A stretch of 64,000 nt of DNA from Vermamoeba vermiformis (GCA_045837725.1 JBEWZL010000077.1:248001-312000); one strand, 5' to 3'. Counted from the stretch's first letter, positions 12,880 through 49,574 are shown. Notes: generated by a model from the letters alone, not told the origin. Translations and numbers: made by a program.

Positions 12880-14145
12880 TCACTGCACTTTTTTCCTCTT
12901 GTCGCGGTCACGTGCTTGTTCGGTGCCCTGATCGGCGTGCAGTCGCTTGGCACGTACTAGCAGCGCTACGGCACCACCCTTGTTGTGCTTGCCCAGTTCT
13001 ACCAAGTCTCCGGTGCGCAATGGGGTCTGCAGCTGCGTCTCTAACACAATGAACGTGAGCAGTCAGAGCCAGATGCACCTCCGTTACGTACCGAGTCGCA
13101 GTCCGTTTAGCCAAGTGCCGTTAGAGCTCAGATCGGTCAGCCAACAGTGTTGTTCGCGCACCACGAGCGAGATGTGCACGGCGCTGATCACTTTGTGCGC
13201 ACTCAGCTCACTCGCACCCACGCAGCCAGATCCGCGCCCGACTTGCACGGCACTGCCTTCTTGGAGCTCAATCACGTGACCATTCAGCGCACCTTGACCA
13301 ATCATCTGCCACTTGACTGCATTGTGCGTCGCAGTGTTGGGCAGTGGTATGTCGAGCAGTGTTGTCGCACGTGACAGCAATTCCGTGCTGGTGCTCAGAG
13401 TAGAGCGATTGGTGCTATTTTTAGTCGCGTCGAGCACGGTAGTCGTGCGCGTCAATAGGTCTGCAGTCGTGTCAGCGGACATCAGGGCAGGTTTGCGTTT
13501 GACATCTGTCACTGGCGCTGAGTGTGACATGTCATCGACGTCGAGACGAGTCTCCATGCGTAACAAGCGCGTCATTGACCTGTCATTCGGTGACCTGTCA
13601 TTCGGTGACCTGTCATTCAGTGACCTGTCATTCAGTGACCTGTCATTCAGTGACCTGTCATTCAGTGACCTGTCACTCTTCTTGTTCTTGAGCTCCACCA
13701 AGTCCAGCTGCGTGACCTCTCGTTGCAAAGTGTCACGTGTCAAAGTGTCACTTCCAGGTGACCTGTCAATCGGTGTGAGAGGCGGTGTAGATCCCTGGTA
13801 GACCACTGGTGTGGCCGGAGATGACGAGGGAGATTGATCCAGTTGCGTGTGAGCCTCGAACAAATCAGGTGAGTCACGTGACGGCGAATGATCACGTGAC
13901 GAGGGGCTGTGCGGCGAGCTCGGCGCTAATTTTAGCGGCGAGAGTTTGATGGGTGAGAAGTCGGACCAGCCCCCGCGTCGTGTGGGCGGTGTTTCGGGAC
14001 TGGATGTGGGCAGTTGAGCTGCTGCGTTCGAGGAATTAATAGACTTATTAGCTGTAGCGTGAGGTGTAGTGGTGGAAGTGCTTGGCAGCGTAGATGTGGT
14101 TTTGGACTTTGGTTGCAGATGTGCACTGCTGCGAGGTCTGTCCAT
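12880..14145 (-). CDS. FHA-domain protein with long S/P/T-rich disordered N-terminus
   Basis: C-terminal FHA motifs VQVGRG, ISAVH and LTDLSSNGTWLNG. After an intron at ~13035-13091 it continues PLRTGDLVELG. The start codon is uncertain. Confidence 0.78.
13576..13675. repeat. 15-bp coding tandem repeat (TGACCTGTCATTC[A/G]G), 6 full copies plus a partial one
   Basis: Seen directly; encodes S[LP]NDR repeats in the FHA protein. Confidence 0.95.
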
Positions 14146-17276: not shown

Positions 17277-17745
17277 AGTTTGTGAATAGTTTTGTAAGAT
17301 AGTTAAGTAAAATTTGTAAATACGCGAATTTGGTTGATGGATCAGCTTTAGTTTCAATATTGAAACACAGTAATCAACCACCAGGGCAAATGGGCTGGAC
17401 ATAGGGTGCAGGACATCCGCCACAAGTTTGTATTTTATCATTGCTTGTGGTAATCAATATCTTCCGGACACAATCTGCAAAGCCAGGGTGTGCCTCAACA
17501 TTTTTGGCTTTGAGCTGATGAGGACTGCAAGTAATAAGTTCGTTATATAAGTGAACTGATGAGGACAATAAGTTCGTTTTCTAGGTAATGACCAATGTGA
17601 ACTTTTCCCAGCTCCAAATTGTCCAAGCCTAGCATGCCCTCAGGACTTGCCTGCTGATTGCTGTTGACAGTTTCCATAGAACATGATCGTCAAGATATGT
17701 AGTGGTGGCAATTTTATCACTTGTAAACAAAACGATTTGCAAACA

Positions 17746-18441
17746 TCAATTTGTGAGTTTACTGCATTAAGTATGAACCCATCCATCTCACACGTTTGGC
17801 ACAACACAACTCTATGTATTTTCTACATCACCGAACTTTGGCTACAATACATGGTAAGCTAGCTATCCAAAAATTTTTCATCTTAACAGGATAAAAGTAA
17901 TCATCACCTGGTGGAAATGATTTTGACGTTGCAGCTAAATTGTGGTTGCATGCTGTGTGGTATTGTAACAAGCATGTGTAACTGTTTGGTTCGTACTTAG
18001 GGTGGACTTCTCATCTGCCAAAATTTTTTCGTCTGTCTGTGGTCGCTGCATCCGCTGAAGTTAGTAATTGACCAACTTACACCAAACTTTGCCAGTAGCA
18101 CCATCAGACCCAAGCAGGACTACTATTGGCATCAGGAGGCTTTGGACTAGCTGCTGGAGGGTGAAAATGTCATTGTTCTGCAAAGAACTTAAGTACCAGA
18201 ACTTTGTTCTATTTGCTGCAATACCATTTAAACTTTGAAAATACATAGACCTATCACTATCTAACAAGAAAATATAAGTAATCATCAAAGAATTGTAGTG
18301 ACAGCAATTTGTAAATGTTCAGCATTAAGTATGAACCATCCATCAGCACATACTTGGTACAACACAACTATACGTATTTTATGCATCACCGAACTTTGGT
18401 TACAATTCATTGTCACCTAACTATCCAAAAATTTTTGCATC
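17746..18441. repeat. Diverged direct repeat of ~130 bp (copies at ~17746-17882 and ~18305-18441) in a non-genic block
   Basis: Both copies read GCATTAAGTATGAACC..ATCCATC..ACAACACAACT..CATCACCGAACTTTGG..CTATCCAAAAATTTTT. Confidence 0.85.
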
Positions 18442-37993: not shown

Positions 37994-38966
37994 ATGTATG
38001 GCAACAAGTATCCTGCCTTCTTCTCCTTTGCTGATCCAGTCGGCAACGATTCTGGCTTTGACTTCTTCACTGGAGGAGATGATAACATTCAATTGCACTA
38101 CAATTCATACTTCCCCAGCGATTCTGGTTTTGGCCTTGATCCAAAGGAGTTGCACGGTGTCGATCCTCTCAAATACGAACAAGTTGATTTTATGGACGTG
38201 GAAGAGGAAATGATGATGATGCGACCTCCTTCTTCTCGATTTGATGACGACGATATGTTCGAGGACGACAATTACAACTCTGATGCGGAGGAAGACGAAC
38301 GAGATGTTTCGAACGACGATATGGAAACCAACGAAGACGACGATGAAGAGGAGCTTTCTGACCAATCAAGTAAGTATTTACGAAACTTTCGATTATCGCT
38401 ACGCTCGTTCCACGCCACGTCTCCAGTCACAAATTAATTTTATTTTGGTTTGGGAGGCGTGGGTGAAAATCTCCCACAATTGAGATTTATAACTGCTTTA
38501 TTATCGCTTTCTAGCTCGTATCTAACCCGATTTCATAGGCCGTTCAAACACTGTTAATAGCTCAGCAGTATTGCCCGCTTCAAAAACACCAATTTTGGAT
38601 GCCACCGCCTTTTGCGCTGAATTGAAGATTGGAGCTGAACGAGACGCTGACCCTGAATCAATTAGAATCACCGATTTCAACACATTCATTTCTCAATTGA
38701 AAGTTTACTGCCCGAAGCAACACCAAACCCAAAACGACGAGGCGCGCATTAAAGCCCTTCGCCGCTGGTTTGACGGTATTCCCAACAAAAAGAAACGAAA
38801 GGAATCATTTGTCATCAAAATGAAGCCTGAAAAGAAGAACAAGATTTTAGTGTGCTTCAAAAAGATTCAGAAGTTTGTTCGTGAACAAGGAGCCAGTCCA
38901 CGCGAATCAAATGTGCCTACCAATCAAATGCACTTCGCGCAACAAGCACTTGTCTCGTACTCATAA
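37994..38966 (+). CDS. Hypothetical protein with acidic N-terminal half and basic C-terminal domain, 2 exons
   Basis: ORFs 37994-38437 and 38571-38966 are joined in frame by a GTAAGT..CATAG intron (~38370-38538). No family recognised. Confidence 0.65.
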
Positions 38967-39122: not shown

Positions 39123-39155
39123 GTTAGCCGTAAAGGCTTAAAATAGATCGATAAA
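39123..39155 (+). repeat. Left copy of 33-bp direct repeat bounding the desaturase/oxygenase island
   Basis: GTTAGCCGTAAAGGCTTAAAATAGATCGATAAA; 30/33 identical to 48070-48102. Confidence 0.9.
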
Positions 39156-39521
39156 GTGTCTTATTTCAACCCAAACTAAAGTTTCCAATAAACTCAGCTG
39201 GGCCAGTTGTCGAAATAAAATAGTAAATCTCATTAAAAGTAATGTTAGCCTTCGTATTAATGTTAATTACGGTCAAACGCCAGTCAAACCAAAAAGGTCG
39301 GTTGCGATCGCAATTAATGATTGCTAAATTTCATTACATTAATAGACACACTTGAAGATTTAGATAAAGAGAAATCTTTAATTTTTGGCAATGTTGTCGC
39401 GAACAGAAGCACCAAGGTTAGTTAGCAACGATAGTATTTACAATGCAAAATTAACTTTACCCTTAAATACATTTTTTACCAACGAGGCAATCACAAGGTT
39501 ATATAATTTTGTCTGCATCAT

Positions 39522-41364
39522 TTAATATTTTACAGTGTACTTGCCACATAAAATTCTGGAAACAACGCGAGCAGATTCGACGATTGTTGGTACGCCTGAG
39601 CCAGGGCAGGTATTGCCTCCTACGATATAAGTATTCTTAATCTCGAATTGATTAGGCGGGCGCATGAACGACATTTGTTCCATTGTGTGGGCCAACGAGA
39701 AAACAGCTCCGTAATGTACGTTATATTCTGATGACCAATCTTCCGGCGTGATAATCTTTTCATCTTCAATATGATTTCTAATTCCGACCAATCCTAATTG
39801 TTCTTCAATTATAGATAACACAGTCTCGCGGAACGGTTGCGTTAGTTTTTGCCACCCATCGCCATTTCGCATAATCTTCAAGTTCGGAGTTGGAACAAGT
39901 ACGTATAATCCAGTCTTATCAGCGGGACAAACAGTAGGGTCAGTAATGCCGGGGAAACAAACGTACATCGCTTTGTTGAGATCCGTCGGGTTAAAATCGC
40001 CAGTATGACAAACTTCAGTAGAATTCTTCTTGACTTCGTTTGGATAGAGTATGTTATGGTGGCAAGTAAGAGTGTCCCATCGCTTATTCAAGCAAAGGTA
40101 CATCATGAATGTGGAGCATGAAAATTCCATTGAGTTGAGCCGTGTGCGAGTCCATTTTTTCAAATGTGTCTCATCGATCAGCTTGTTTAAAGTATAGCCA
40201 AAGTCTGCATTCATGATGACCTCGTCAGCTTCAATCAAGTCTCCGTTCTCCAAGAAGACGCCATTTGCTGCACCGTTCTCTATTTGGATCCTACTGACCG
40301 ACGACGCAAGTTGAATTTTTCCGCCAAGTTCAGTGAAAACTTTTGCAACGCCGCGAAGAATTGAGCTCAGACCACCCTCTGCGTACCATACACCGTACTT
40401 GCGTTCAATATATGGAATCATCGAGTAGATGCCAGGACAAGAGTATGCGCTCATTCTGTTAAAGCTTAGATAAGAATTTTAAGCTTATTAACAACGATTT
40501 GCCTTACCCTAAGTACTTGCTATGAAAAGAAAAAGCTAATTGGCATTGCTCATCAGCGAAATAATTTGCAAAAACATCCACGAGACTTTTGCCGATAGGA
40601 ATGCTTGGTAACGATGCGAGCCAATCTAGTGAAATACAATCCAAAGCATTTCGGATAGGTCGTTCCAGTAGTCCATAGCAAGCTCGCATCTTCTTGTCCT
40701 CTCTTTCGTTGAATTTGTCTAATCCTTTTTCATCGCCCGGAAACACCGCGGCGATCTCTTGTTTCATCTTTTGATCGTCCGCATACAGCGTGATCTTCTT
40801 GCCATTAGCGAAGTGAACTCGATTGAAAGTCTCGAGTTTGATTAGCTTGGCGTAATCGTTCAAATTTCTTCCAGACTCAGCAAAAATTTCTTCGCAAACG
40901 TTCTGAATGGTTCGAATCAATTAAATAAGTTTACTTATTATTTCTCAGCTTACCTTTAACATCAAGAGCGTTGGTCCTACGTCGAACAGGCAAGAACCGA
41001 CTTGAATTTGTGCGTTTCTTCCACCAATATGATTGTTCTTTTCAAGAACAGTAACATCGAAACCGCGTGCTTGCAGCAACATGGCTGCACTCAGACCGCC
41101 CCATCCAGCGCCAATAACGATCACTTTCGGTCTTCTTTTTGTAATTGGCGTTTGAGGTATGGGCCTGTGTTGCAGGTCTAGCGGCTCGTATTTACTGACT
41201 CCTTCTCCGAAGCGCGGATAGTAGCGCTTTGGAACGCTCATCGTGTTCTGTCAAACGAACATTAACTGATGGAGTTATTATTGCAGGGCAGTGCGGATCG
41301 TTACCTTGATGAGCAATCCAATGAAAGCTGAGGCGCATGCAATCAATACCACACTTAGTATCAT
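39522..41364 (-). CDS. CrtI/CrtN-family FAD-dependent carotenoid desaturase, paralog 1, with N-terminal hydrophobic anchor
   Basis: VIVIGAGWGGLSAAMLL..VTVLEKN..GGR, FDVGPT, FSFHSKYLGMS, GVWYAEGG, SCSTFMMYL, YVLVPTPNL and YIVGGNTCPGSGVPTIVESAR. Exon 1 is MILSVVLIACASAFIGLLIK. Confidence 0.88.
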
Positions 41365-41574
41365 GACTTTTGTTGTCTTCTGGGTACTCAGGTATTCAAT
41401 TGAATTCTGTTTTATATTTGCCCGGCGGAAACGGTTTCCGCTGATTGCAATGCATTCAAAATGTCGGAGTCTTGTGTCCGCTAGATGGTTTCACAAAAGT
41501 ATTATTAGACACGATGTCGGCATCAAGTTCCGAAAAGATCAAGTGTATTGTTTATTGCAACACTGTTTGGCATC

Positions 41575-43466
41575 TTAGTACTTGTTGTCATACTTGCGGC
41601 AAATGTAATTAGTCACAATCCTTGCCGCATCGATGAGCGTTGGAATGCCAGCACCCTATTAGTACGGTTTAAACATTGTCAAGATTATTATTATGGATCA
41701 TACTTACTGGATGATTAGAAGATCCGACGAGCCACGTATTCTCAATTTCAAACTTATTCGGGGGTCGTAAAATTAAGATTTGCAACATTTTGTGTTCCAA
41801 CCCGAAAACAGCTCCGTACGGGATGTTGTAATCAGCCTCCCAATCAGCAGGTGATATGATCTTCTCTTGCGCTATCGAGTTCGAAAGATTATCAAGCTTG
41901 AGTCTCTTTTCTAACCGCGCCAATATGGTCTTCTTGAAGATCTGCTTGATCTGATGCCAATTGATGTTTGGATTGATTTTTCTATTCGGAACTGACACTA
42001 AGACATACATGGCTGTATTATTCTCGGTTTGGATCGATGGATCCGTTACTCCAGGGAAACAAACGTACATGCTGTGTTCTTCACTGAGCGGATCAAATTC
42101 GCCAGTTTCGCAAACTCTCTTCATACACGCTTCAAAATCGGTCGGAAAGACTATGTTGTTATGAGAAGTGATGCTTGGCCATTTTCTATTGAGGTTTAAG
42201 TAGATCATAAAAGTTGAGCACGAGTACGTCATCTTGTCCATGGTCTTCGGGCTCCATGTCTTCAACGGTTGATCGATTGCATTCTTAACTAGCCAAGCAA
42301 TATCGGGGTTCATAACAATGTCATCTGCTTCGATAATTTCACCACTTTCTAGCGTAACCCCTGTCGCGGCTCCATTTTTCGTGTTAATCTTTTGTACCGC
42401 AGATGAAAGTCTTAACGTTCCTCCGTATTCAGTGAATACCTTCGCCATGGCTTCTAATATACTGCTTAGTCCTCCTTTTGTGTACCAAATTCCATCGGCT
42501 CTTTCAAAGTACGGAATTGAGATGTACGCGCCGGGACAAGTCCATGGGCTTGCTCTGCATTATTATCAGTTTGATGCATCTCGTTATGGTATTTCTAAGA
42601 GCGCGGATTACCCTAGATATTTGCTATGAAAAGAGAATGCCCATCGCAAAGCAGGAGAGGGAAAGTAATCGCCAAGAACGTCAAAGAAGGATCTGCCCAA
42701 AGGAAGCCAAGGTATGGATCGCATGAGGTCGATGTTAATCAAATCAAGGAAGCTGGCATAGGGCCTTGCTAATGCCTTCATTAAATATTCTCCTCTCGTT
42801 TTTTCAATCTTCATCATGCGATCCAAGCCAGCTTCCTCGTTCGGAAACAATCGTCTAATTTCTTCTTTTTGCTTTCCGTGATTCGAAGTCAGTAGCATAT
42901 CTCGACCATCACCAAAATAGATTTTGAAAAACGGATCCAATCTTTTCAGTTCCACATAGTCGGCCAGTTTTCTCCCGGATTCACAAAAAGCTTCTTCTAA
43001 GACATACTTCATTACTAAAATAGTTGGACCAGAGTCTAGGCGGCAATTTCCGAGTGTAATTCTTCCTTGACGACCGCCAATCTGTTCGTCTTTTTCCACA
43101 ATGGTCACGTCAAATCCTCGTGATTGAAGTAACATGGCTGAAGTAAGTCCTCCCCAGCCAGCTCCTGTAAATTCGGACGATGTTAAATATATCTTGCATG
43201 AATTAACCTTCCTACCAATAACTACTATTTTAGGTTTTCTGCGGTTGCCGTTTGGATGTTGAACGAATGGAGTTTTTCTAGTTGACATATCCAAGGGCTT
43301 GAACTCGTCGAAATTATTCGAAAATGGAGGGTAGTAACTCTTTCGATGCTGTCTTTCATTCTGAAATGCCACTTATTAACCAGATCTAAACGATCGTACA
43401 AATCCATACCTTGACGAGTAGCAGAACAACGCCAGCGAGTAATGCGGTAAGTAGCAATAGAATCAT
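41575..43466 (-). CDS. CrtI/CrtN-family carotenoid desaturase, paralog 2, with N-terminal hydrophobic anchor
   Basis: IVVIG-AGWGGLTSAMLL, LDSGPT, FSFHSKYLG, SCSTFMIYL, YGAVFGLEH and HP-GAGIPTLIDAAR. Exon 1 is MILLLLTALLAGVLLLVK. Confidence 0.88.
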
Positions 43467-43636
43467 GTTGTGGTGTTTTTGTGAACTAATTGATCAAAAA
43501 GAGCCTGATTTACTCCTTTGAAGCTGATGCAATGGCTAGAAACTGGTGGCGGAAACTTTTCACGCCGACTCACAATTATTGAATTGGTTGCATTATTAGT
43601 AACATCAACACAACACAAAATCAACACGAATTGCAT

Positions 43637-45572
43637 ATGTTTATCACTTTACTAGTCGTGACTCTCGTAATTGCGCTAACATTCGTGACTTTAGTCGTGG
43701 TCAAGGTAAGTAGAACGAATTTGGTCATTGTTTCGCGTCACTATTAATACCGAATGTAGAATGAGCGATCAATGCCAAAGAAATACTACCCTCGATTTGG
43801 AATCGGGGTACAAGACTACAACCCTTTAGATCTATCCGGCAGACAGCAACCGAAAACGGCCGACAATAGGGCGCCTAATGTTATCGTCATTGGTAATTTA
43901 AACAAGACCAAGCGTTTCAAAATACTTACGTTATATATGCCTTTTAGGGGCTGGTTGGGGCGGTCTTGCGTGCGCAATGTCACTTCGGTCTCGCGGATTT
44001 GACGTTCTAATCGTCGAGAAAAATCCTGATATTGGGGGACGGAATACTCCCATTGAAGTTGGTTCATGCAAATTCGACGTTGGCCCGACGATGCTTCAGT
44101 TTAAAGTAAGCGGTGGAAAAATGAGTCTTGCTTGCTAACAAGTTTTAATAGCACATCGTCGAAGAGGTGTTCGCTGAGTCAGGAAATCGCCTTCAAGATC
44201 ACGTCAAGTTGACGAGACTAGACAACTACAACCGAATTTATTTCGACGATGGAATTGCGCTGGATTTGTACACGGACGATGAAGTCATGAAACAAGAATT
44301 AGATCGCGTATTTCCTGGAGCCTCGAAGGGACTGGAGAAGATGTACGAAAAAGAGAAGGAAAGAGGACCGTTATTTGTCTCGTTACTCGAGCGATCGTAC
44401 ACGAGCATTTTGGATTGCTTCACGTTGAATTGGTTCAGAGCTGTTACAAAGATTCCCCTTGGAAAGAGCTTGATGGACGTTCTCGGAGAATATTTCAGTG
44501 ATAAGCGATGTTGCTTAGCCTTTAGTATTCATAGCAAGTACCTCGGGTAAGTTCCGATCATTTCTGCGAGTAAATAACACTAATGTACTTGCAGAATGAG
44601 CCCGTGGAAATGTCCGGGACTTTACGTAGTAATTCCGTACTTTGAACGATTGACTGGTGTTTGGTACACTGAAGGTGGTCTTTATGCAATCGTCAACGCT
44701 ATGAGAAACATCTTTGTCAAAAATAACGGAAAAATCATGTTTTCAAGCACGGTCAAGTCCATTCACATCGAGAACGGAGCAGCTAAAGGAGTTATCTTGC
44801 AAGACGGAACTTTATTGCCTGCGGACGACGTTGTGATTAACGCTGATTTTGCATATGCTGCTCACAACCTCATCGGCGATAAGCACCTGAAGCGATGGAC
44901 GACGAAGAAAGTTGACTCTTGCGATTACTCTTGCTCCACGTTTATGATGTACATTTCACTGAACAAGAGATTTGATTCGCTCAAGTGCCACCACAACATC
45001 ATATTGGCCAAGGACGTGGTCAAGAATATGGATCAAATCTGCGTCTCTGGCGATCAAGACCCACGCGATGATAACAGATCAATTTATGTCTGCTTCCCTG
45101 GCTTGTCAGATCCAACCGTTTGTCCTGCCAACAAAACCGGGCTTTATGTCCTAGTACCAACTCCCAACTTGAAAATCGCCAAAGAATCGTCCGAGAAGGT
45201 GTACAGTCAGCTAAAAGAGACTATTTACTCAATGCTAGAAGACAGATTAGGCTTAGCTAACGTACGAGATTACGTTGAAGCAGAGAAAATCTTGACACCC
45301 GAGAACTTCGTCAACGATTTCAATGTGCATTATGGCGCTGTATTCGCTTTCGCTCACTCGATGTCTCAAGTCATGTTTAACAGACCACCCAATCAGTTTG
45401 AAATCAAAAACATGTTTCTCGTTGGAGGTGGCGCGCATCCGGTACGTCCGGCATTGTTCTCCGACTCAAACGTACTAATCCTGACTTTTAGGGCTCTGGC
45501 ATACCAAGCATTGTAGAATCAGCTCGCATCACTTCTCGTTTGCTTTGCAAAAAGTACAATATCGAGTATTAA
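43637..45572 (+). CDS. CrtI/CrtN-family carotenoid desaturase, paralog 3, with N-terminal hydrophobic anchor
   Basis: VIVIG-AGWGGLACAMSL, FDVGPT, HSKYLG-MSPWKCPG, SCSTFMMYI, YVLVPTPNL and VGGGAHP-GSGIPSIVESAR. Exon 1 is MFITLLVVTLVIALTFVTLVVVK. Confidence 0.88.
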
Positions 45573-45750
45573 GATGCACAAGATATTTATAACCCTCGTC
45601 GGAGATTCAATCCGAAGACAATTAAAAACAGTGTCTATTTTTACCCTCGTAACGAAATTTTAGCGATTGCTTTCGTGTCAACGTCTGAAGTTTGTCGGAA
45701 TCACCACCCGACCCAATTTAATTCATTGAAAGTTTGTTTGGCACGACTCA

Positions 45751-47958
45751 ATGCCAATAATGATGATAATCGATTATCTTTTGGAAATAGGTCTCTTTCT
45801 TTTGGACTTTTTGAACTTAATTAACAATCTGTTGCGGCGTAGAAAGACAAAATCCGAAGGTCAGGATCCCTAGACGAAGTGTTTAAACGAGAACCCAATT
45901 AACTGTTAATCTAACTCCAAAGGATCAACGCACTTGACAGGAAATTTTTTGCCTATTCACGATGAAATAGAAGTAGACTCATTCCATATTGAAGGAAAGA
46001 TTCCAACCGATTTAAACGGAACCTACATCCGCAACGGACCAAATCCACTCTACATACCTAAACACTACCATTGGGTACCCTTAATATACAATGCCAATCA
46101 TTCTTACTAACGAATATCTATCGTAGTTTGACGGCGACGGTATGATACACGCGATGACGTAAGACTCAATTGATGCGCGATGTGAAACTCGAATAGACTC
46201 TTACTGCCATATGTTATAGGATCCAGAACGGTCACGTCACCTATAAGAATCGATACATTCAAACGGCCAAGTTGTGCCGCGAAAAGAAGGACCAATTCTG
46301 CGTCAGTTTTCAGAGACCAATTAAACTCTTAGTAACCTTCCTTATATAGTATGAGCAATCTGTTGTTACTCGGGGCACTAAGACATGACCCCTATAGCGC
46401 ATACAAAGTGATTGCGGCGATGTTCAAGTGGGGCTTGCGGGTTCCAATGGACCAGTACAACAATGCAAACACTTCATTCGTCTATCACAACAACACTTTG
46501 TTAGTGCTGTCTGAAGTCGCCAAGCCTATAGAGGTTGGTACTATACATTAGGGTCCACGCTTCCTCAATCTCATTTGTTCCTTGTAGTTGAAATTTCCTT
46601 CTTTGGAAACCATCGGAATGTACGATTTCAACAAAAAGCTTCGCAGGAATATGACTGGTAAGGTATTGTTTGCGGTTGGTGATAAATTGACCCGCTATTT
46701 TAGCTCACCCGAAGATCGACCCCGCGACAGGGGAATTAATTTTCTTTGGCTATCCACCAACACCAGTTGACGGAAGAAAAGTGCATTATCACGTGGCAGA
46801 TAAGTGAGTTACAAGCCTTGAACTTGACAGAGATGTTAAACAGACTCAACTACAGAAATCTCAATATCACTCACTCGCTGCAAGTTCCTGTGTCGGGCAA
46901 TGAACTGATCCATGATTTCGCGATTACGGTGCGTAGCGTACTTTCCTGTTTGGTATCAAAGGAATTAACCAGGATCACGTATAGCCCAATTATACTCTCT
47001 TGCCGGATCTGCCACTCAGATTGGATCTGATCCAATGGATGCGTGGGCGAGGTGGCTATAAGTTTGACAAGAGAGGTCGCTCTCGCATAGGTACACTTTG
47101 AAAGACTAGTCTATTGTTGAAATTCTCTAATCGAGATCAGGAATATTTCCGCGCTATGCCAAATCAAGCAATGAAGTTGTGTGGTTTGAGACGCCTCTCT
47201 GCTTTTTTTTCCACGTCATCAATGCTTGGGAAGAAGAAGATCAAGTCGTACTCATTGCATTGAGGTATTTAGTCCGATGAAACCGCATGTTGTAGTAATT
47301 GTTTTGTAGGCAAAAACAGACGCTTGCTTTCGGTCTCGTTCCAGATGACCCCACCGTGCGCGGTACGTCACTTTACTAAGGTCAGCGAAATGTAATGCGA
47401 TCATTTGTAGAGCATGCCACGCTGTACGAATGGCGATTTGATATGACGAAAAGAATTATCGTGAGTGAGACACCTATCCAGAGCGGATTTTGCGTGGAAT
47501 TTCCGTCGGTGAACGAGAAGTACTGGACGAAGAAAAATAGATTTGCGTACCTCGGTCTGTTCGATGACAACAAAAACATTGACGGCAGAACCTACGGAGG
47601 TAAATTACTGCAGATATTCTCTTCGTAACTAAGAATGGTGCAATCATAGTGTTAAAAGTGGATCTGCAAAACAAGGTCAACAACCAACCTTACGTGTTGC
47701 CCAAAGGACATTTCTGCGGCGAGTTTTTGTTTGTCGCCAGTGACAACTCGCAAGAGGAAGATGATGGTTATTTAAGTAAGTGAATTATACTGTTTTTAAT
47801 TATTCAGATCTAATCGATTTTCAGTGGCGTTCGCTCACGATGAAGGAGAGAACATATCGTATTTCTTAATCCTTGATGCACAGTCAATGAGATTTCAAGC
47901 CCGGATCGACATTCCTAGACGAGTGCCTTACGGCTTTCACGCAAAGTGGATCAAATAA
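45751..47958 (+). CDS. Carotenoid cleavage dioxygenase (CCD/RPE65 family), highly intron-fragmented
   Basis: Spliced motifs [80 protein letters not shown] and [10 protein letters not shown]. All four Fe-ligand His motifs are present. Confidence 0.9.
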
Positions 47959-48069
47959 TTAATTTATAGTACGATAAACTGTTTTCATATCATGCGGATT
48001 CGAAAGCCTGTGCTGTGCTTTTCTTTAGCTAGGTCTCGGTACGGACCATTCATCTTGTGCACAGATTAC

Positions 48070-48102
48070 GTTAGCAGTAAAGGCTTAAAATAGATTTATA
48101 AA
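48070..48102 (+). repeat. Right copy of 33-bp direct repeat bounding the island
   Basis: GTTAGCAGTAAAGGCTTAAAATAGATTTATAAA. Confidence 0.9.
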
Positions 48103-48145: not shown

Positions 48146-49574
48146 TTAGTGTTTGTTGTAGGCAGACCACTCAATCGCGTTGTTGAGGATGGAGAAATCG
48201 CCAAACACGACTGCAGATCCGCTTGCCGAGGGAGCAGCAGGGGTGGTGGAGTTGCCCTTATGACCTCCCGGGCCCACAGTGAAGTAGAGAATGATCGTGA
48301 GCACTGCACCCAGCAAGGCCACGCACAGCACGATAATAGCAATCATGCACTGTGAGAGTATTAGTAGTGCAGTAGTGTCACATCCAAGGACGTACCTTTC
48401 TGCCACGTTTCGCCAGCTTGTTCGCCTTTTTGAGCTGTCCAGTAGCCTCTTTCATATAGCCAGTAGCATTCTCGATGTTGACTTCAATCGAAGTGATCAT
48501 CTCGCTCTGTTCGGCCACGAGTACGGCCATGTCAATGAACAGCTGTTGCAATTGATTCAAACTCTGCTCGATCTTCATGATTTCTTGGTGACGATCCTAG
48601 AGAGACCGATGTGTTAATAGTGAGCTTGTTAACGCATGTTCTATATACGTACACGAATGTATGACAAGGCAGTCTCGGCAGCCTTTTGTTTGTCCACCGT
48701 CTTGTCAGCGAAGATGCGGTCAGCATTGCCACTCTCAATGGTGTCGTTGATCTCATCTTCGGTGGCATCAGGACGCACTGTATAATTGAGGTTTGAGTGC
48801 CAAGCTGATAATACTGTGTAGTTAAAACAGTCACGTACCGACCAAGATCTGACGTCTGACATTGTCTTGGTACTGTTGTTTGTACTTGGCCTGCACTCCT
48901 TGATAGTGCTGCATAATTTCCACGAATTGTTGCACCAGACTCGCGTGCGTGTTCTTCTTAATCCGCTCTTCTGCAGCCTGGGCTTGCATCTGCTTCACCG
49001 AGGCTGTGTATGCATGTAATTAACATTTGTATCGCATATGTATACGCTATTCAAATACCTGTAGTGTCTGTCTTCACCATTGCCTCCAGTTTTTCCTTAA
49101 CTTCGTTCGCGATCTTGTTAGTGTCATCGACGATCTGGTCTGCTTCATTTCCAAGCTCTGTAAAGGTAATAAACTCATTAAAAAAAGATCATAAACAGTG
49201 GCTCAGAATTTCAATGAAAGCAATTAAATTCCCGATCTGTTCGGACAAACCGCAGTGTTAATAAATACAATTTGAAGCACTCACTCTTCTTGTCCTTAGG
49301 GTTAATTTTCTGTAATTGTTCCGTATATTTTTCTTCCAATAATTCGATGTTATTCTGAATCTTTTTCATTGAGATGCGGACGTCATTGACACCAGAAAAG
49401 AAGTCAGACATAAATTCATTGCCATCAGCTGCCATCTCTTCATCTTGACTATGGTCATCACTACCTAAGTGAGGATTGGTCTAAATATTATTAATAAGCG
49501 GATCAGGACCACGTTAAATAGTTGCAATAATTTACCTCGGCAAACTTATTTAAATCTCGTAATCTATCTAACAT
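48146..49574 (-). CDS. Plasma-membrane-type syntaxin (Qa-SNARE, syntaxin-1 family)
   Basis: N-peptide MLDRLRDL, FMSDFF, Habc helices, SNARE motif IEQSLNQLQQLFIDMAVLVAEQSEMITSIE and a C-terminal TM segment. Confidence 0.92.

Follow-up and report, generated by a model that had tools for sequence, protein, structure and literature searches.

Target-site duplications of eukaryotic transposon superfamilies other than Cryptons measure roughly 2-20 bp. Bacterial att direct repeats have a size of tens of bases. The Starships of fungi, which span tens to hundreds of kb, carry a DUF3435 tyrosine-recombinase 'captain' at one end and have short direct repeats. In this study, we analyzed a 64,000-nucleotide (nt) stretch of Vermamoeba vermiformis DNA (GCA_045837725.1 JBEWZL010000077.1:248001-312000, hereafter the window), in which two copies of a 33-bp direct repeat enclose an 8.9-kb block of exactly three genes of the crtI family and one gene of the RPE65 family. 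Our tentative reading, to which we give somewhat less than an even chance, is that the finished cluster was inserted or relocated as a unit and that the 33-mers are the resulting boundary duplication.

The locus was compared with each of these systems. As in the target-site duplications of eukaryotic transposons, the repeats are direct, have identical sharp ends and directly flank the segment. The block also resembles Cryptons, whose terminal direct repeats are 4-6 bp long according to the excerpts consulted of a previous report (PMC3212892), in having no inverted terminal repeats. However, no transposase, recombinase or reverse transcriptase was found here, and the cargo consists of four intron-bearing enzyme genes alone. 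The locus differs from transposons in duplication length, terminal repeats and enzyme, and agrees with them in its flanking direct repeats. Bacterial attL/attR islands are similar in that direct repeats of tens of bases surround a metabolic cassette, which could in principle be excised. In contrast, the present locus lies in a eukaryotic genome, contains spliceosomal introns and lacks an integrase, a tRNA target and a break in composition, the last three being the features in which it departs from integrase islands. Starships, too, include metabolic gene blocks that are bounded by direct repeats and move as a unit in a eukaryote, whereas the block described here is 8.9 kb in length and no recombinase domain was found in its scanned open reading frames (ORFs).

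A previous report described the horizontal spread of carotenoid and apocarotenoid gene sets among heterotrophic protists (Rius et al. 2023, PMC10016063). In the portions of that report consulted, the set consists of crtI-crtB-crtY fusions and Blh-type oxygenases. The present cluster is similar in that crtI-type desaturases and a carotenoid-cleaving enzyme occur in a eukaryote, here in a window of otherwise housekeeping genes, and in that its crtI-like genes have bacterial nearest relatives, whereas it has three separate crtI paralogues and an RPE65-type oxygenase. The term 'direct repeat' is absent from the text of the paper in the form consulted. The arrangement was not described in the papers retrieved by a literature search on crtI, carotenoid oxygenases, gene clusters and horizontal transfer, as judged by titles and the beginnings of abstracts.

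The two 33-mers lie on the same strand and differ at 3 of 33 positions, namely 7, 27 and 28. Their borders are sharp, with in-register identity falling to background directly beyond both ends. Local alignment of the 150 nt on either side of both copies recovered the 33 nt alone, and no longer or gapped homology was found within that range. Allowing up to 3 mismatches, the 19-nt exact core of the 33-mer has 2 matches alone in the window. No third or degenerate copy of the 33-mer was found there, the next best match (22/33) being at the level of shuffled sequence. The copies end in GATAAA and TATAAA, respectively. All three differences between them fall at the two CpG sites of the left copy, where CCG is matched by CAG and CG by TT.

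To estimate chance, three nulls were built from window shuffles that preserved dinucleotides within 2-kb blocks. A match of 30/33 in either orientation was reached by 0 of 340 shuffles (maxima 29 direct and 28 inverted), although this statistic was picked after the repeat had been seen and slightly flatters the pair. The ungapped +1/-3 score of the pair, 22, was reached by 4 of 200 shuffles, and its gapped +1/-1 score, 27, by 2 of 40. When the window was compared with itself, no other dispersed non-coding match scored as high as the pair, and the higher matches were coding paralogues and local or tandem repeats. The window-wide chance of such a pair is roughly 0.001-0.02, with its location at both cluster borders not yet counted. 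The pair is beyond chance, and the two 33-mers are treated here as true copies of one sequence.

Both copies lie in spacers between convergent genes (Table 1). In the sense orientation, the left copy is 156 nt past the stop of the left flanking gene, designated gene A, and the right copy is 111 nt past the stop of the RPE65-like gene. On their other sides, the nearest stops are those of crtI-like gene 1, at 366 nt, and of the syntaxin ORF, at 43 nt, respectively. If the block and one copy were deleted, the remaining convergent spacer would measure 156 + 33 + 43 = 232 nt. This implied empty site is within the range of the convergent spacers of the window, ~185 to 1600 nt, a rough estimate taken from ORF ends. 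The spacers inside the cluster measure 333, 399 and 337 nt, and because of these distances (333-399 nt) there is no room for another gene in the cluster. The syntaxin ORF (48146-48340, minus strand) extends by ~45 residues past the predicted membrane anchor, which is unusual (by eye). The true 3' end of syntaxin may not be the ORF stop, in which case the 43-nt distance to the right copy would change. The initial annotation had reported a 33-bp direct repeat with 30 of 33 identical positions, and its coordinates, orientation and identity were confirmed here. It had also stated that the repeats enclose exactly four metabolic genes, that the right copy lies 43 bp beyond the syntaxin stop and that removal of the insert would leave an ordinary short convergent gap. 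The present analysis agrees with all three statements, the gap being 232 nt.

Models of the crtI-like genes were derived from homology and splice signals. Pfam profiles NAD_binding_8 and Amino_oxidase matched these genes, with NAD_binding_8 found in each case on the N-terminal exons. Against TIGR02734 (cut-off 238.1), gene 1 scored 248.5 bits with its last exon alone, and the corresponding exons of genes 2 and 3 scored 196 bits as fragments. The phytoene dehydrogenase structure 4dgk in the PDB matched gene 1 at E 9e-39. Judged by TIGR02734 and the N-terminal FAD/NAD Rossmann motif, the three predicted proteins belong to the CrtI family. For the fourth gene, PF03055 matched five ORF pieces at profile positions 1-46, 96-130 and 321-468, and three of the five were individually above the 27-bit cut-off. 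By this profile, its predicted product belongs to the RPE65/carotenoid cleavage oxygenase family; in the PDB it gave a weak match to carotenoid 9,10-dioxygenase (E 0.006). A scan of 49 large ORF pieces from across the window found no phytoene synthase or cyclase.

The 5' ends of two of the models are probably incomplete. In crtI-like gene 2, an in-frame ATG is absent at the start shared with genes 1 and 3, and the sequence suggests an additional 51-nt intron and a further 5' exon. Upstream of the gene 2 start (43216-43400, minus strand), a donor-like GTATGG and an acceptor-like TTTCAG were noted by eye. The first family-matching ORF piece of the RPE65-like gene has no in-frame ATG (45573-45925, plus strand), and this gene likely has a short upstream exon. 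The bases right after the stops of genes 2 and 3 (41570-41577 and 45570-45582) look alike by eye, GATGCCAAAC compared with GATGCACAAG, and this likeness may be the last trace of their duplication.

Nine introns were placed in the cluster. They measure 46-57 nt and have GTAAG-like starts and CTAAC- or CTAAT-like branch sites. By eye, two introns of the host UPF1 gene (~52-53 nt) look the same, and the cluster introns are of host type as far as their sequence signals go. An intron after the KYLG motif is common to all three crtI-like genes. Two more intron positions are common to genes 2 and 3, one within the GxGxxG motif and the other ahead of the C-terminal GSG motif. The introns at shared positions have no evident sequence likeness (by eye), and the proteins of the three paralogues are 46-55% identical.

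Among named sequences, those closest to the crtI-like genes are crtI-family members from bacteria or archaea, with 40-45% identity. A scan of bacterial and archaeal genomes confirmed 587 of 590 candidate stretches, and the best 80 loci were kept. The window genes formed one clade in a quick maximum-likelihood tree with 97 rows, with a Shimodaira-Hasegawa-like approximate likelihood ratio test (SH-aLRT) value of 100, a stem of 0.89 changes per site and tips of 0.47-1.03. Across the trees, tip and stem branches measured 0.2-1.25 changes per site. A second quick tree of 45 rows combined the three window genes with 27 of the 80 loci, 10 of the 120 'near' proteins listed and 5 of 14 'longer' proteins. 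In this tree, P0136 was sister to gene 1 (SH-aLRT 98, 78% identical) and P0137 was sister to gene 3 (SH-aLRT 100, ~95% identical). These two proteins and the three window genes formed one clade (SH-aLRT 99), of which the eukaryotic transcriptome protein P0138 was the sister (SH-aLRT 94). Two further proteins, P0135 and P0215, differ from window ORFs by 1 residue in 310 and 3 in 259, respectively (~99% identical).

The split between genes 1 and 3 is older than the 78%-identical orthologue P0136. Because of the trees and the orthologues at 78% and ~95% identity, the duplications are old, predating at least one related organism, and the genes have long been eukaryotic. On this evidence, the three paralogues form one old lineage-specific clade, and the block is an old, intron-bearing eukaryotic gene cluster and not a fresh foreign island. 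A copied bacterial operon was also considered as its origin and rejected: an RPE65-like gene was found within 8 kb in 0 of the 80 bacterial and archaeal loci, by a tblastn search with five short exon peptides, whose sensitivity is limited.

The GC content at third codon positions (GC3) of the cluster genes is 0.44-0.51, compared with a median of 0.67 (range 0.45-0.76) in 26 Pfam-supported host ORF pieces. The cluster lies in a regional low-GC zone at ~33-50 kb, where GC is 0.36-0.48, against 0.50-0.60 elsewhere in the window. Several genes outside the repeats have GC3 values as low as those of the cluster (Table 1). Because the low GC3 continues past the repeats, composition fails to mark the block as foreign.

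Under the insertion reading, a single 33-mer would originally have lain in a spacer of ~232 bp between the convergent genes A and syntaxin. A ready-made block of 8.9 kb would then have been inserted or relocated in one event, by which the 33-mer was duplicated. One possible mechanism is a widely staggered break with filled-in overhangs, and another is the entry of a circular intermediate by one crossover within a short shared sequence; either would leave a copy on each side. Because the block has no mobility gene, any movement would have required the repair or recombination systems of the host, or a factor supplied in trans. Recombination between the direct repeats could in principle lead to rare loss of the block. 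The repeat is direct and sharp-ended, its two copies are the only ones in 64 kb and they enclose the four enzyme genes and no others, and the insertion reading accounts for every geometric feature of the locus. Because the paralogues are so diverged, the 91%-identical repeat, if neutral, would be much younger than the cluster. In that case it could not date from the origin of the cluster, which fits a later move of the finished block. If the 33-mers are an insertion scar, a whole enzyme cluster would have moved in one piece in a eukaryote without its own transposon machinery. This would bear on the formation, relocation and loss of metabolic gene clusters, and the locus would provide a simple presence/absence marker among related strains.

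Several observations weigh against an insertion. There is no machinery, the duplication is unusually long, and a donor site of similar composition would be required. The 33 bp exceed both the 4-6 bp of Cryptons and the roughly 2-20 bp of the other superfamilies mentioned above. Pfam detected crtI-family and RPE65 domains alone in the scanned ORFs of the block, with no recombinase, transposase or reverse transcriptase. No terminal inverted repeat was detected, since the best inverted score of the inner ends (7) was equalled by 195 of 200 shuffles. Their best direct score, also 7, was equalled by 193 of 200 shuffles, and no sequence shared between the inner or the outer ends of the block rose above shuffles. 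The statement in the initial annotation that no integrase, transposase or terminal inverted repeat is present inside was therefore upheld by the Pfam scan and the comparison of the ends with shuffles. The window contains 0 tRNA or tmRNA genes, and no Rfam family reached its gathering score there. No compositional break was seen at the repeats, as low GC3 continues into host genes; the composition suggests long residence of the block in the region. The host-type introns likewise carry no sign of a recent arrival. Finally, the cluster is simply the gene set between two neighboring convergent spacers, and an element tied to 3' ends and present in two copies would bracket it without any insertion.

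This last point leads to an explanation that we consider about equally likely, and likewise possible rather than probable: the 33-mer may be a discrete short spacer element, conserved or dispersed, with no insertion involved. It could be a 3'-end or untranslated region (UTR) signal, a site for binding protein or RNA, or a tiny dispersed selfish repeat, and it could lie within the 3' UTRs of both gene A and the RPE65-like gene. Both copies have the same sharp ends and lie downstream of plus-strand genes at similar distances. Such an element would account for a 91%-identical non-coding block beside a very old cluster, and for composition and introns that show no sign of recent arrival. Less coincidence would also be needed, the cluster being the genes between consecutive convergent spacers. 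The genome has other short conserved intergenic blocks, and this too counts against an insertion. Exact copies of the 12-base palindrome TGACACGTGTCA number 10 in the window, and 19 sites are counted when up to 1 mismatch is allowed, versus 0.35 expected; some copies have shared flanks of 26-30 nt with 88-90% identity. It is probably a genome-wide regulatory motif. No copy of it was found between 27317 and 50650, which includes the low-GC zone holding the cluster.

However, the 33-mer has two copies in 64 kb despite an estimated ~25 gene ends and 7 convergent spacers, and no degenerate copy rose above shuffle level in the window. Inspection by eye of the other four 3' flanks at the locus showed no common motif. 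RNA folding around the 33-mers gave neither a stable nor a shared structure in comparison with shuffles (z-scores -0.4, -0.7, -1.3 and +0.5), and Rfam gave no match around either copy at E<=1. The position of both copies exactly on the borders of one metabolic cluster, in direct orientation, would have to be a coincidence. If the 33-mer is a conserved spacer element, the repeat would be an ordinary regulatory or repeat feature. The cluster itself would then be the more interesting part, with three old crtI paralogues and an RPE65-type oxygenase.

A more specific form of the insertion reading is unlikely. It holds that the block is a non-autonomous, repeat-bounded metabolic cassette that moves, and can be lost, as a unit via att-like 33-bp sites, by a recombinase encoded elsewhere or by host recombination. 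Such a cassette would be, with the same low likelihood, a eukaryotic counterpart of a bacterial genomic island with an apocarotenoid pathway.

A recent foreign mobile island of bacterial, viral or other origin, integrated by a site-specific recombinase at att-like 33-bp sites and still excisable, is very improbable. Direct repeats of att-like length surround a metabolic cassette, the crtI-like genes have their closest named relatives in bacteria, and the GC3 of the cluster is under that of most host genes of the window. However, all three crtI-like genes and the oxygenase have host-type spliceosomal introns, and the crtI-like genes form a deep lineage-specific clade with a eukaryotic sister and close orthologues. 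The RPE65-like neighbor was not found within 8 kb in the 80 bacterial and archaeal loci with the short exon peptides, window scans found neither integrase nor tRNA, the low GC3 is regional and includes host genes, and the recombinase-like lead in gene A failed its tests (see below). Because of the introns and the phylogeny, a foreign island is largely refuted. The suggestion in the initial annotation of an att-like or target-site duplication, formed by integration of the whole cassette, is partly supported by our results in that the geometry is as expected and the pair is beyond chance. Its term 'island', in the sense of recent, foreign or self-mobile, is contradicted by the host-type introns, the old clade, the orthologues and the regional GC3.

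The least probable explanation, which can be given hardly any weight, is that the pair arose by chance in AT-rich spacers or through misassembly at an overlap of k-mer size: the looser scores were matched in a few shuffled windows and 33 is a k-mer size in common assemblers, but 30/33 was reached by none of the 340 shuffles, the location at both cluster borders would be a further coincidence, the copies differ at 3 positions where an overlap artefact would be exact, and coding sequence, introns and composition continue smoothly over both borders.

Table 1. Positions of the repeat copies, cluster genes, flanking genes and other features in the window (aa, amino acids).
Feature	Position	Strand	GC3	Remarks
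Left copy of the 33-bp direct repeat	39123..39155	+		Within the 555 nt that separate the convergent gene A and crtI-like gene 1
Right copy of the 33-bp direct repeat	48070..48102	+		30/33 identical; within the 187 nt that separate the convergent RPE65-like and syntaxin genes
CpG sites of the left 33-mer	39129-39130, 39149-39150			Compared with the matching positions of the right copy
crtI-family (phytoene desaturase family) gene 1	39522..41241	-		3 exons (41241-40954, 40902-40508, 40455-39522); 538 aa
crtI-family gene 2	41575..43372	-		At least 4 exons; 47% identical to gene 1
crtI-family gene 3	43772..45572	+		5 exons; 533 aa; divergent from gene 2; 55% identical to gene 1
RPE65-family (carotenoid cleavage oxygenase family) gene	45910..47958	+		Many short exons; stop 47956-47958
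Gene A, left flank, outside the repeats	37994..38966	+	0.46-0.49	2 ORF pieces; acidic N-terminal half; conserved C-terminal domain of ~105 aa
Syntaxin (SNARE) gene, right flank, outside the repeats	48146..49480	-	0.40 (N-terminal piece)	Pfam SNARE and Syntaxin domains; 3' end from the ORF stop
LSm, outside the repeats			0.45	
VPS29 exons 1-2, outside the repeats			0.33-0.38	
VPS29 last exon			0.69	
TGACACGTGTCA, exact copies	10145, 10780, 20049, 25161, 27306, 50650, 52781, 54452, 56103, 58021			Span 4500-58032

The window as a whole is eukaryotic and contains housekeeping genes, namely RasGAP, CDC73, Exo70, an RNB nuclease, RhoGAP, Nsp1, OGT and UPF1, as well as a VPS29-like phosphoesterase, LSm, syntaxin, HEAT-repeat proteins and RasGEF. 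For UPF1, no close named relative was found, the top matches being proteins of diverse eukaryotes with 72-77% identity across roughly two thirds of the query. A search with the C-terminal domain of gene A, on the left flank of the cluster, gave 189 relatives at E<=1e-3, and Pfam yielded no family for gene A even at E<=10. The structural model of this domain had a predicted local distance difference test (pLDDT) value of 82.6 and a predicted template modeling (pTM) score of 0.74. A fold search gave no match at E<=0.001; weak matches were to winged-helix DNA-binding folds, with a best E of 0.03 and template modeling (TM) scores of 0.4-0.5. These results are consistent with gene A being a member of a conserved family without a name, possibly DNA-binding, and it could be a putative regulator adjoining the cluster.

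In a look-alike search with a language model, the C-terminal domain of gene A fell near the ALOG, QRICH1 and Phage_int_SAM_1 clusters, with a recognition value below the guide value and the family flagged as probably wrong. ALOG domains are said to derive from the DNA-binding domains of tyrosine recombinases, according to the abstract of a previous report (PMC3537659). If this lead held, a recombinase relic would lie 156 nt from the left repeat. Gene A was rejected as a recombinase remnant: besides the absence of a Pfam family and of a fold match at the thresholds given above, 0 of 60 aligned relatives had such a family, and a sequence-profile search of the PDB gave 0 matches at E<=1.

Two other repeats were noted in the window. 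A tandem array at 13551-13692, within the span of an ORF piece with an FHA domain, consists of ~8 copies of a 15-base unit with up to 100% identity. This unit includes TGTCA and GTGAC, the two halves of the TGACACGTGTCA palindrome. A local direct duplication of ~160 nt (17723-17882 and 18278-18441), 80-87% identical, lies in the long spacer past the RNB-domain gene.

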